From the NCBI GenBank assembly GCA_951406725.2, contig OX597831.1:26102001-26166000 (forward strand): 64,000 nt of DNA, in the 5' to 3' direction. The notes under the pieces were generated by a model. That model worked only from the letters and a program-made list of their open reading frames with translations, did no database searches and had not been told where the DNA came from. Of the stretch, positions 22,541-64,000 are shown piece by piece; positions within the stretch are counted from its first letter, which is position 1; each line of letters begins with the position of its first letter. Position numbers and translations under genes: made by a program. This DNA is from Octopus vulgaris. Lineage: Eukaryota.

Positions 22541-22592
22541 TAATATATATATGTATATATATATATATTATGTAATATGTATATATTACATA

Positions 22593-22748
22593 CATGTATG
22601 GCACTTATAAAAACAAAGATGTATACATACATACACACACTTAGACACGTGTGTGTATGTGTGTATGTTCATGTATATTTGTGTTCATGTATGTGTGTCT
22701 AAGTGTGTATGTATGTGTACATCTTTGTTTATAAGTGCAATACATGTA
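22593..22748. repeat. Inverted repeat with arms of about 55 bp
   Basis: GCACTTATAAAAACAAAGATGTA...CTTAGACAC versus GTGTCTAAG...TACATCTTTGTTTATAAGTGC. Confidence 0.8.
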
Positions 22749-23439
22749 CATTATATGTCAAATTATGTAGCTTTCAGATAGAGATTGTGTTGAAAGTTTA
22801 TCTAAATCTCTGTAGAAAAGACTATTGGACAACCTTGTAATAACATTTTATAAAACAGGAACTGAAACTACAGTTCTAATGTTATCAACATCGATTATTT
22901 TGTTAGAGACATTCTAAGAATCCATGTGACAATATTGATTTACTATAGCATTCTCAGTTTCTACGAGAGTTACTTATAGTGCTTAGAACTTGTCTAATTG
23001 ACTTCAGTAAACACCAAATTCTATTTAAGCTTATAATTCTCTTTGACACATCTGTCAATGGAGTAGCTTCAAACAGTTATTTATGGACTTCAAACAGTTT
23101 CAGATTGAAACTAGATATTTCAATGCATTTGGTAAAATAGTTTTTTTATAATTTATAGCCAATTAATTAAATTATAATTCTGTCACCAATGACCTTATTT
23201 GGAATTTACTATGCTTTTCTCTTTTTCTGGCAGGGAAGCAATATCCCTGACTGCAGTTGCTGCTGCTGATCTGCCAAGATGGCTCAAGTGTTGTTAATAT
23301 TCTATTAAAACATCTGTAGAAAGACATGTACTGAAGAATATATGAGCAGAAATGATGTGATGACATGTTTTATGTAGGATATAGAAGATATGACAAGGAA
23401 AGGAAGGATAGTCTTTGGGTTAAAAATTATATGTAGCTT

Positions 23440-48204: not shown

Positions 48205-48213
48205 GTATATATA

Positions 48214-48249
48214 GGGGGGAGTTTCTATTTTCTTTTTTTAACATATTTC

Positions 48250-48301
<52 letters not shown>

Positions 48302-48340
48302 CATACATACATATATATATATATATATAGGGGAGTTTCA

Positions 48341-48392
<52 letters not shown>

Positions 48393-48527
48393 TAAGGTAC
48401 TCAATACATAAGGTAAAATTAATTTATATATAGAAGTTTCTATTTTGTTTTTGTAACATATTTCTATTATATATATATATATATATATATATACATACAT
48501 ACATATATACATACATACATATATACA

Positions 48528-48592
<65 letters not shown>

Positions 48593-48625
48593 GGAGTTTC
48601 TATTTTGTTTTTGTAACATATTTCT

Positions 48626-48630
<5 letters not shown>
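48214..48630. repeat. Compound tandem repeat: about 40-bp unit GGGGAGTTTCTATTTTGTTTTTGTAACATATTTCTAT, four copies separated by TA tracts
   Basis: Units near 48214, 48329 (short), 48432 and 48589. Confidence 0.8.
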
Positions 48631-48675
<45 letters not shown>

Positions 48676-48964
48676 TGTATATATATATTGATGTAAGGTG
48701 GACTGGCTTGCTTTAGTATTTCAGTGCTCCTTCAAATTGTCACAACAGTTACTATATATTAATTCAAAACAAATCCCTCTGCCCCACTATTCAAGCTAAT
48801 GACAAATACAATTCAAAGTATTCTTTCAGCAAAACCGAAAGGAATACACTAAGCCCCTTAGTAATCCAAATACTAAACAATTTCTTTCATAAGTTTCTGG
48901 TTTATTGCATAGCTAGTGGGAGGCAAGCCTGCTTGTGTGTGCATACATATATATATATATATGT

Positions 48965-49317
48965 GGAGGCACAGTGGTCCAGTGGTTAGGGCAGCAGACT
49001 TGCAGTCGTAGGATCATAGTTTCAATTCCCAGACCGGGCGTTGTGAGTGTTTATTGAGTGAAAACACATAAAGCGACCCCTGTTGTAGTCTTTCACCATA
49101 ACTTTCTCTCACTCTTTCTTCTTGTTTCCGTTGTATCTGTATTTTGAAGAGCCAGCCTTGTCACACTGTGCCATGCTGAATCTCCCCGAGAGCTAAACTA
49201 TGTTAAGGGTATACATGCCTGTGGAGTACTCAGCCACTTGCACATTCATTTCACAAGCAGGCTGTTCCATTGATCGGATCAACTGGAACCCTCGTCGTCA
49301 TAACTAACAGAGTGCCA
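48965..49317 (+). mobile_element. SINE family D variant
   Basis: GGAGGCACAGTGGTCCAGTGGTTAGGG head; 3' half matches 32590-32757. Confidence 0.8.
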
Positions 49318-49395
<78 letters not shown>

Positions 49396-49460
49396 TGGAG
49401 TAAACACATAAATGTGAAAAAGGTGGAAAAAGAGTACTCAAATACCAGTGGTAGAGTAAT

Positions 49461-49624
49461 ATACTTTATTTAAAGCAGCAGAAAATTCAACAAAACCTGT
49501 TACTCTGAGTTTCACGTTCCCGTTCATCGGACAGTTTTTGCTAGAAAAACCTGTCCGACGAACGGGAACGTAAAACTCAGAGTAACAGGTTTTGTTGAAT
49601 TTTCTGCTGCTTTAAATAAGGTAT
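49461..49624. ncRNA. 164-bp palindrome holding two opposed minimal hammerhead-like motifs
   Basis: Minus 49496-49534 reads CUGU-CCGAUGA-ACGGGAACGU-GAAA-CUCAGAG-UA-ACAGG; plus copy 49550-49589 has AAAA for GAAA. Confidence 0.65.
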
Positions 49625-50241
49625 ATATATATATATATATATACTTACATCTCCATTTCAGTGTGTGAAAAACAACATTCTTTCATATGTTCATCTGCCT
49701 ACATATACATCCAAATATACATACATACATACACAGATACATAGATGCATGCATACATACATACATACATACATACATACATACATACATACATACATAC
49801 ATACATACATAAATGTATGTATGTGCATGCATGCATTAGTGTAGGTGTGTACATATGTATGTATATACGTTTGTATGTACGCATGCATGCATCTATGTTA
49901 ATGATTACATTTATTCTCATAACACCTATTTTTCCATGCTGGTATAGGTTAGATGGGGAGAGAATTGTATTTAAGCAGAATTTTGTCCAGAATTTTGCCT
50001 AATAGCCCTGCTCTTTCAGTAATTATCCCATACCTGTTTTTCAAGTAAGGGATTTTAATTCCAGAGTATTTGAAAGTAGATGGCAATCAGCCAGTATATC
50101 AATAAGGAGCATAAACATTATCACTGTTCTGCTCAGATACAAACATAGGATACCTAGTTTTATGCACATTTGTGTTTTTGCACGTATGCACACACACACA
50201 TGCATGCACATTTGTATGTACATATATATATACACACATAT

Positions 50242-55089: not shown

Positions 55090-55238
55090 CTATACAATAT
55101 GTTACATTACTCGGTAGTCAAGATAAAACTCTGAGTTTCAGGTGCCGAAGTCACACCTGTGGGGTGTTGTGGTTTCCACTTCGGCATCTGAAACTCAGTT
55201 TTATCTTGACTACCGTAATGTAACATATTGTATAGATA
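55087..55238. repeat. Inverted repeat (arms of about 60 bp) containing the GAAACTCAGAGT hammerhead 3' half
   Basis: TATCTATACAATATGTTACATTAC..GGTAGTCAAGATAAAACT versus its reverse complement at 55195-55238. Confidence 0.8.
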
Positions 55239-55909
55239 AATTTCCTCTATTTACATAATATTGAGGTCTCTTTCTTTCTTTTGTTATCTTACCGTTTTAT
55301 CAATATATATATATATATATATATATATAAGTATATGTGTATATATATAAGTATATGTGTTTATATATATATATGTGTGTGTATATATATATATATATAT
55401 AAGTATATGTGTATATATAGATATGTATATGTGTGTATATGTATATATATATATATATGTATATGTGTATATATATATATGTATGTGTGTATGTGTGTGT
55501 GTGTGTATACAGTCAAAGTTCTGAAAATTATAATCACCCTCATAATCATCATCCTCCTACTTTTTAACTTCACCATCACCGTCCTCATCATCATCATCAT
55601 TATCATCATCATCATCATTATCATCATCATCATATTCATCATCAGCAGCATATTTATCATCATCATTATCATCATCATAGTCATCATCATATATTCATGA
55701 TTCCATATTTTATATATATTACGCATGCATGAGCTGATACATATATTCATAATTGATTCCTTTCAGCTGTTCCTGTTGTTAGTCTTATTAGGAGATGAAA
55801 AGATCCTTGGCAAACTCTCATTCCACGTCTTCCTTATCTACTGGTGAAACCAATAACCTGGATACCGTCTTTATACAAATTTACAAGCAGCATAATAGTT
55901 GAGTCTACT

Positions 55910-56050: not shown

Positions 56051-56336
56051 AGACCTGTGAACAAAATATCCACTCATATAAACTAATTCATAAGAATTGT
56101 TTGAATGGATCTCCTGATCTTATGAATTATGCCAATCCACTGCCCTGAAAGAGCAGCCTGGTAATAACATAAGTCAATTAACATTGTATAATAGCATAAC
56201 TCTCATTTATTGTATTGCCTGTAATTACATCATCAATATCAGTTTTCCCCATAAATTAATATTCTCTTCCTATTTGTATTTGATTAGCAAAATTCTTAAT
56301 GTGAATTTGGGCATTGAAGCAAATTTTGTATCTTGT

Positions 56337-56618
56337 GAGGGTCATTATGCTAATAATAATATAACACATGCACTGGTTTAATATCACTTCTTTATTGTTA
56401 GTCAGTTGGTTGTTTAATGAACTGGTTAAACAACCAGTTGGTTGGTTGTTTACATCAAAATGACTTTGACTAACAAACAACTGGTTGATTGTTTAACCAG
56501 CACATTAAACAAGCAATCGATTAGTTATTTGGTGAGATATTTGACCAATTGACTAACAATAACGAAGTGATATTGAACCAGTGCATGTGTTATTATTATC
56601 ATTGGTATAACGATCCTC
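56337..56618. mobile_element. Foldback-type MITE with TIRs of about 75 bp
   Basis: ATAACACATGCACTGGTTTAATATCACTTC..TATTGTTAGTCA versus TGACTAACAATA..GAAGTGATATTGAACCAGTGCATGTGTTAT. Confidence 0.75.
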
Positions 56619-56912
56619 CCAAAAGAACATGAGTATTTTCTCTTTGATTAAAACGTCTTCTTGGATACTAAATAAAACTGGAAGAATTCTTTACATAAAC
56701 TATATGTCAGTGGTTTTTATATACTGTTTCTTCTTTTTAACTGTCTAATCTCTGTTTATGTTGGTTCTGCATATTTAGATATTCTATATGGATTTTTTTT
56801 TTTTTTCCCAACAACTCACTGTCAACCAGTAAATCAGATATTTTACAGACTGAAATATATTGAATGATATTCCTTGTCTAAGGGGCCAAGCTTCAAACTG
56901 GGGGTCTTAGAA

Positions 56913-63112: not shown

Positions 63113-64000
63113 GATAATGAAGATAAACACAACTAAGTTTTATATATATAAATTTGCATACATGCATACACACGTACTTATACACAGGTATATATATATA
63201 TATATAAGGATATTCAAAAGCTGAAAATATTGCAAAGATAAACACTTATGAGCAAGTATATAGATATTTATATATACTGACAAATAAATTTACATGGTGT
63301 ATAAAAGGTTCTGAAAGCTGAGGGGAGAAAGCTATGCACTCTCCCCTCAGTTTTTTTTTTGAATTTTCTATATTCCATGGAAATTTATTTATCAACGTAT
63401 ATAGAAATATCTATATACATAAGTGTTTATCATTTCAATATTTTTCAGTTTTTGTATATCCTTATATATATACCTACATGTGTATTATGTAAAGTTATAT
63501 GGGTACTGTATATAGTAATGCATGTGTTATTATATAGTATTGTATGTATTTTGTGTATTGTATATGTGTGCTGTGTATTGTACTGTGTGTCCTGTGTATA
63601 ATAAGGTGTACTGACTTCACAACCAAATGCTCTTCTTCCAAATGAAAACCTCCTGCAACTCATTAGATCCCTAAAGCACCGTGAAGACATTAATTTCAAG
63701 AAGTATATCAGAAGTAAATATATCGGATGAAGTTTGTTCCTTTCCAAACTTCTGGTTCTGAAGAACTAAAATCTTGCCTCAGCAGACAGAAGTAGTCCAG
63801 AATGTTTATATTATAAAAAGGAAAACAAAAATCAAAGTCCATCCCTGAATCATAGGCCCATAAAGTTGGTTTCTCAGATTCTATGATGTATACTGTTATC
63901 AAGTAAGATGTATTCTATTGTACTCAGAATATATAACTTTATAAAATGAATGAAGATTAATAAAGCATACCAGACTCACAGTAGTCATACAGGCATACCA

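Follow-up and report, generated by a model that had tools for sequence, protein, structure and literature searches.

Penelope-like retroelements (PLEs) of the Hydra clade with a C-terminal endonuclease (EN+) are marked by the motifs RWK, DKT, CxCx5C, CxxC and CxH and are generally shorter than 3 kb, according to section 11 of PMC8557442. Absence of an IFD and position on an RT tree further define the clade. Insertion into (TA)n of inverted copies that are 5'-truncated and bear a tail on one side only is standard PLE architecture in the relevant parts of PMC8557442 and PMC2377424. The two published Hydra consensi from a coral and a sea cucumber end in CTGT-CTGANGA...GAAACTC-N-GAGTAACAG (PMC8557442, part of the supplement). 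Minimal type I hammerheads in the pLTRs of metazoan PLEs were described with low activity and with a palindromic stem III for dimers, and the dual motifs of Schistosoma were placed on opposite strands 100-700 bp apart, in the cited part of Cervera and de la Pena 2014 (PMC4209133). For Poseidon of Anolis, the part of Frangieh et al. 2024 (PMC11167929) concerned reports that both strands of AT-rich DNA serve in vitro as substrates for cutting and extension by the PLE protein, that two internal RT start sites bound the tail, and that uncleaved RNA is the main substrate. In Adineta vaga, Penelope elements with head-to-head inverted pLTRs, palindromic junctions, an optional tail and solo pLTRs were described, and the junction palindromes were explained by self-priming (Arkhipova et al. 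2013, PMC3846280, in part).

The locus described here lies in a window of 64,000 nt of Octopus vulgaris DNA, the whole stretch that was analysed. As judged from its sequence, the window element is a stub, 228 bp long, left by a Penelope retroelement that resembles the Hydra clade. The stub layout and the pairing of hammerheads on opposite strands are already published in the cited parts of PMC8557442, PMC2377424 and PMC4209133; the locus itself is ordinary debris. The family shared with the Hydra-clade PLEs the five protein motifs, the (TA)n targets, the inverted copy that is 5'-truncated and tailed on one side, and the hammerhead frame. The same frame was found in the coral and sea cucumber consensi, and the motif is therefore conserved across phyla; the middle base of stem III in these consensi differed from that of the window family. 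The core-to-core unit of L137 (L101, L137 and similar names are labels of fetched genomic loci) was 3,357 bp, which was outside the general Hydra range of less than 3 kb, and the tail was ~70 nt compared with 30-40 nt. The window family also differed in having an amplified subfamily with a U4C core. Hydra-1_Obim was a separate family, listed without a pLTR and with an N-terminus that differed by eye.

With Poseidon, the window family would share two neighbouring internal RT start sites that delimit the tail, an AT-rich target, cutting of both strands and dispensable cleavage, which in Poseidon were shown in vitro. The hammerhead and start sites of Poseidon overlap the ORF start, whereas those of the window family were located in the 5' UTR. 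The cores of the two opposite-strand frames in the window were 25 nt apart, much closer than in Schistosoma. Compared with the hammerheads of PMC4209133, stem II of the window frames was 2-3 bp long with a GNRA loop and lacked G10.1-C11.1. The head-to-head pLTRs, palindromic junctions, optional tail and solo pLTRs of A. vaga recurred in the window family; however, non-nested arms favoured two priming events over self-priming. In LINE-1 twin priming, two target ends prime cDNA and the products are joined by microhomology, as proposed below for the window family. In LINE-1 the inverted part comes from elsewhere in the RNA, further upstream, whereas both arms of the window family copied the same 3' pLTR segment.

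Features of the palindromic stub and its flanks (window coordinates)
Feature	Position	Strand	Basis
Left (TA)n target tract	49319..49393	.	Sequence; limits approximate; family inserts in (TA)n
PLE 'tail', ~70 nt, this arm only	49394..49463	-	Runs on into ORF leader in full-length copies L101, L137
Long (tail-bearing) arm: pLTR 3' end, 5'-truncated ~16 nt upstream of core	49464..49546	-	Arm mapping, pLTR identity
Minimal type I hammerhead frame, predicted	49492..49539	-	Motif frame; same frame in published Hydra consensi
Stem I of - frame	49539-49531/49500-49492	-	Motif frame
Core CCGATGA (U4C) of - frame	49530-49524	-	Motif frame
Stem II ACG-GGAA-CGT, GAAA and palindromic stem III of - frame	49513-49510 (GAAA)	-	Motif frame
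Predicted cut of - frame	between 49501 and 49500	-	Motif frame
Inversion junction: own self-complementary CTAG + two long-arm bases (-16/-14 type)	49541..49546	.	Arm mapping
Second hammerhead frame, likely dead	49546..49593	+	G12 kept in 35/35 and 44/44 other copies
Core CCGACGA (U4C) of + frame	49555-49561	+	Motif frame
G12A of + frame	49572	+	Motif frame
Predicted cut site of + frame	between 49584 and 49585	+	Motif frame
Short arm: pLTR 3' end ending at the family's fixed short terminus	49543..49621	+	Same terminus in sampled copies
Right (TA)n target tract	49622..49643	.	Sequence

The arms of the palindrome paired over 49459-49626 about the centre 49542/49543, giving 84 pairs with 5 mismatches (49540/49545, 49535/49550, 49526/49559, 49513/49572 and 49465/49620), and self-BLAST aligned 168 nt at 94%. 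The RNA of 49397-49640 folded with -132.9 kcal/mol (z -21.7), which was equalled by 0/200 shuffles. The left arm was ~70 nt longer than the right arm, and TA tracts were present at both ends. An earlier, sequence-only reading had described near-perfect arms around a CTAG at 49541-49544, each with a minimal hammerhead, and both pairing and self-BLAST bore out the arms; in each of them the frame runs outward from the centre. The motifs that it listed, CCGATGA in the - arm, CCGACGA in the + arm, ACG-GGAA-CGT, ACTC-A-GAGT and GTA, were all present, as was the contrast of GAAA in the - arm with AAAA in the + arm. Its stem I held only for the + arm, where 9 bp were perfect and one base departed from the family sequence, whereas the - arm contained an A.G mismatch. 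The element limits that it gave, 49397-49624, were displaced by family copies to about 49394/5-49621.

The CUGANGA core was absent from both window arms, which carried CCGAYGA. Position 4 of the core was C, and G12 was kept, in 35/35 older copies that were chosen on upstream sequence and not on the core; the copies with an intact ORF had CUGAUGA in 44/44 motifs. U4C therefore marks the subfamily of the window, and the G12A of the + arm is a private hit. G12 is the general base of the hammerhead. The GAAA box and an NUH cleavage triplet were present in the - arm, and the + arm carried G12A. U4C lowers activity considerably in vitro yet permits viroid infectivity, as stated in part of PMC3088659. 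Stem III formed a self-duplex of -9.4 kcal/mol, and only a small fraction of the ensemble adopted the monomer hammerhead fold (p 6e-5 and 0.014); as predicted from the sequence, the palindromic stem III suits dimer formation. The two window motifs are on opposite strands, so both could not form a dimer within one transcript. No step in copy number was found at the predicted cut site (+29/+30). Rfam returned no hammerhead family for a single arm, for a young copy with the canonical core, or for an 11-kb region among the best 150 of 233 matches. The hammerhead call thus rests on the motif frame and on the match to the Hydra consensus ends. Across subfamilies, the stem II loop stayed GNRA (GGAA or GCAA) with a variable outer pair (A-U, A.G or A.A), and stem I kept a purine-purine mismatch (A.G or A.A). 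Elsewhere in the window, CUGANGA...GAAA was matched at six more places, where inspection by eye showed no convincing stems.

Further repeats surround the stub. A second palindromic stub of another family was located between TA tracts at window 55095-55300; its arms shared a GAAACTCAG(A)GT stem III and were cut inside the core, with a one-sided ~70-nt extension on the right. Older, decayed palindromes with 71-78% arm identity were found at 63197-63472, 56333-56622 and 22573-22765, the first of them between TA tracts. At 48207-48630, a 35-40-nt unit starting GGGGGAGTTTCTATTTT recurred about four times between TA tracts. What we take to be a tRNA-derived SINE-like repeat filled 48963-49318, immediately to the left of the TA tract that precedes the stub.

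The parent was traced by an upstream walk from the pLTR arm to the full copy L101. The tail-bearing 153-nt arm was 96% identical to the L101 pLTR and 94% identical to the L137 pLTR. L101 was composed of an inverted pLTR with tail, a short direct pLTR, a broken ORF, a 1.4-kb 3' UTR and a pLTR with the short end, in this order, and in L101 and L137 the tail was the segment that links the short end to the ORF leader. A search with the RT of L101, which gave 150 scored matches out of 11,079 candidates, placed many of these in 727-aa open frames, and this frame (711 aa from Met) was open in 16/20 fetched loci. Of 7,996 candidates that were scored, 1,071 were homologues of the parent protein with E<=1e-20. 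The model of the parent protein had a pLDDT of 92, and its top PDB fold match was TERT (3du5, E 1.9e-9), with no GIY-YIG chain among the whole-protein fold matches listed. When L137 was compared by eye with the published Hydra EN alignment, motifs of a C-terminal GIY-YIG endonuclease were recognized, without CCHH and with a CxCx5C linker, CxxC and CxH. The RWK motif and the change of DKG to DKT were present in both the L101 and L137 translations, and insertion into (TA)n and a hammerhead in the pLTR were further traits of the parent family. By motif and alignment likeness, the parent is a Penelope-like retroelement with Hydra-clade motifs. The Penelope-like origin suggested by the sequence-only reading was thus upheld by an ORF-bearing parent with an RT of telomerase-like fold, and the RT/GIY-YIG partner that it proposed to look for was found as RT and C-terminal GIY-YIG-type motifs in one ORF. 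Pfam gave no significant match for the broken L101 frames or for the intact protein, a PDB sequence search with the parent protein gave no match, and neither blastn nor tblastn detected a parent body inside the 64-kb window.

A young subfamily (for example L137-L156) contained many near-identical intact 711-aa ORFs, with ~70 tied top scores among the matches listed; these ORF sequences suggest that the subfamily was active very recently. PMC13282606 lists Penelope-like families with recent activity in Octopus vulgaris; the cited part of it does not mention hammerheads. About 200 nt upstream of the core, L101 and its relatives contained a GTAAGG donor-like word and a TTGAC branch-like word, and a TTCTAG acceptor-like word ended at stem I, which echoes the pLTR intron of D. 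virilis; the same GTAAGG word was absent from the young subfamily.

Positions on the arms were counted from the hammerhead C3 = 0, and the searched genome comprised 2.8 Gb in 227 contigs. Counting of genomic copies, proposed by the sequence-only reading, gave 1,878 exact matches (931+947, control 0) to a 34-letter pattern of the older subfamily of the window, mostly CCGAYGA, and 3,501 exact core matches were found for the young subfamily (CUGAYGA). An inverted arm ending at the same short terminus adjoined 24/29 other best genome matches to the tail arm. The outer ends of the arms were fixed, the short end at ~+66 and the tail end at ~+136. Contig C1 had 96 listed exact core matches; fetching the DNA on either side of every one and mapping the arms gave 151 arms, which formed 52 head-to-head pairs and 47 single arms. 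One locus in this sample is duplicated, and two of the pairs are young ones that were included incidentally. The pairs were composed of 41 short+tail, 1 short+short, 0 tail+tail and 10 unclassifiable pairs, so that 41/42 classifiable pairs were short+tail, an excess with p=2e-11 at 50:50, whereas the single arms comprised 23 short, 23 tail and 1 other. The same combination was found in 10/10 classifiable pairs among the first 30 young-subfamily matches (3 common to the first set) and in 8/8 multi-kb inverted insertions with both ends in view. The arms of a pair shared lineage alleles, with 5/49 discordant compared with 23.8 expected. In L002, L017 and L022, a pair of linked lineage sites distinguished the arms, a pattern that fits either two RNA templates or gene conversion. 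The apparent single arms of L058, L165, L188 and L196 bore a very short remnant (8-17 nt) of the other end in inverted orientation, and two-ended priming may therefore exceed what the pair count shows. An apparent tandem at C1:121.19 Mb was a local duplication of one stub.

In contrast to the outer ends, the junction varied from -140 to +86 over the 52 pairs of the C1 sample, with a hotspot at the element's own CTAG (-14..-11), on which 11/52 pairs were centred. Microhomology overlaps were found at 32/52 junctions; 7 were blunt and 13 contained inserted bases. The exact CTAG-centred pattern gave 232 strand hits in the genome (control 0), with at least 75 loci among the first 100 matches listed, and was found in old as well as young subfamilies and in either polarity with respect to the tail. 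Both cores were held by 38/52 sampled pairs, and about half of the sampled insertions were without a second core. The sequence-only reading had asked whether the inversion point is fixed, as a family feature, or variable, as an insertion by-product; a variable point with fixed outer ends is likely what a by-product of insertion would leave.

Among the arms that reached -5, 88/115 ended in -5..-19, with an edge at -17/-18, and single arms showed the same 5' pile-up as paired arms; seeds had to match the core to -4, so arms ending further 3' were under-sampled. Exact young-core 34-mers starting at +30, -4, -10, -17 and -21 numbered 3036, 3501, 3031, 1854 and 1581, respectively, counts that are not strictly comparable, the +30 probe using other diagnostic bases. 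About 55% of the young-subfamily arms stopped 5-21 nt upstream of the core, a 17-nt zone. Probes at -23 and -66 gave 684 and 1003, a difference owing to sub-lineage variants and too confounded to speak to pure TA microhomology. The YYANWYY-like word near -17 is a weak motif. The TAG at -13..-11 resembles a splice acceptor, and the pLTR intron of D. virilis ends at helix I in the description given in PMC4209133 (in part). A splice acceptor was rejected as the cause of the stop zone; the arms kept bases 5' of the TAG, with no shared upstream exon.

These observations are best explained, in our view with good probability, by a 5'-truncated head-to-head insertion of two pLTR ends, likely in a single event, with the hairpin and the hammerheads as passengers that have no selected role. 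With (TA)n cut, the RT-endonuclease would start cDNA on the two sides of the break in one event, using uncleaved RNA as template, and each broken DNA end would prime at one of the two internal start sites, which correspond to the short end and the tail end. Both cDNAs would run off the RNA 5' end near -17, a terminus placed from DNA only. Two cDNAs of the same polarity could anneal only at a self-complementary word such as CTAG, and fill-in after this annealing would yield the palindrome. A literature search, mostly outside subscription sources, found no published two-primer or start-site account beyond the papers cited here, and no account of one start site per end or of a 5' stop zone was found in the cited part of PMC11167929.

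The main competitor, which we regard as improbable, is that the second arm arose by self-priming, when the first cDNA or an antisense template folded back at the CTAG palindrome, and that endonuclease resolution of the intermediate set the short end. Self-priming was proposed for PLE junction palindromes in PMC3846280 and the tail was attributed to EN resolution in PMC8557442, as given in parts of these papers; junctions of the -16/-9 type fit a small hairpin primer, and the arms were usually of one lineage. The junction of the window, with its longer tail arm, is also compatible with it. The two readings part on how the arms overlap. The tail arm reached further 5' in 5/41 pairs and the arms ended within 5 nt of each other in 18/41, and fold-back could also explain these nested or near-equal pairs. 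However, in 18/41 pairs the short arm reached >5 nt further 5', and neither arm can copy the other there because the short arm holds extra 5' sequence that is absent from the tail arm; in 2 pairs there was no overlap at all. Later deletions could mimic some of the non-nested arms. The two linked lineage differences in L002, L017 and L022 also speak against self-priming.

Recurrence of the CTAG-centred junction could mean that the palindrome spreads as one unit, as a non-autonomous element resembling a MITE or a retrozyme. This is extremely improbable, given that 41/52 pairs had other junctions, that the recurring junction occurred in both tail polarities and both subfamilies, and that the ends were asymmetric and the sequence was continuous with an ORF-bearing parent. 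The asymmetric ends and variable junction likewise led to rejection of a MITE or fold-back DNA transposon, which has symmetric TIRs and a fixed interior, and a non-LTR retrozyme of non-coding tandem hammerhead monomers was rejected on the upstream walk, which led into a 1.4-kb 3' UTR and an RT-EN ORF. A fold-back artefact of sequencing or assembly has a negligible probability: the arms differed at 5 positions, the right arm ended exactly at the family short terminus and the left arm bore the tail, and the same layout recurred across the genome with lineage-matched arms.

The sequence-only reading had also proposed that a transcript would fold as a dsRNA hairpin that blocks cleavage and could be a Dicer or ADAR substrate. 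The energetic part of this proposal stood, as the full hairpin (-132.9/-134.9 kcal/mol for the two strands) was 62-70 kcal/mol better than the hammerhead-constrained fold (-70.4/-65.0 kcal/mol) on either strand. The blocking part did not, since there is probably little cleavage to block, U4C being fixed in the subfamily and the + arm having also lost G12. That the palindrome works as a hairpin silencing its ribozymes and feeding Dicer or ADAR, as an element feature or a host switch, is very improbable. Such hairpins would be numerous, judging from the pairs with both cores, and PLE small RNAs were reported in rotifers in part of PMC3846280. However, the junction varied, about half of the sampled insertions had no second core, both cores of the window were mutated, and the five arm mismatches looked like drift rather than compensation. 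As host-gene context, Pfam detected no significant family in 77 long window frames, a set that omitted low-complexity frames and those near 50.1-50.3 kb. A selected role for the hairpin was thus unsupported, with mutated cores on opposite strands and a variable junction. It is plausible that such stubs give rise passively to dsRNA in read-through transcripts, and palindromes of this kind, which number in the thousands, could passively supply it.

As a doubtful extension of the two-end priming account, the stubs would record the PLE complex itself: a dimeric RT-endonuclease with one start site per end, and an uncleaved RNA, sometimes two RNAs, copied to a transcription start ~17 nt upstream of the hammerhead, with stem III as an RNA dimerisation signal and catalysis optional. 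If true, stem III dimerisation with optional catalysis would explain how the U4C subfamily reached thousands of copies.

The inverted repeats and tails of PLEs and the role of their hammerheads are questions posed in the cited parts of PMC8557442 and PMC11167929, for which the octopus family offers material. It combines intact ORFs with thousands of short insertions, and its ends give three concrete predictions, namely that each end uses one start site, that the template's 5' end lies 5-21 nt upstream of the core, and that cleavage is unneeded.
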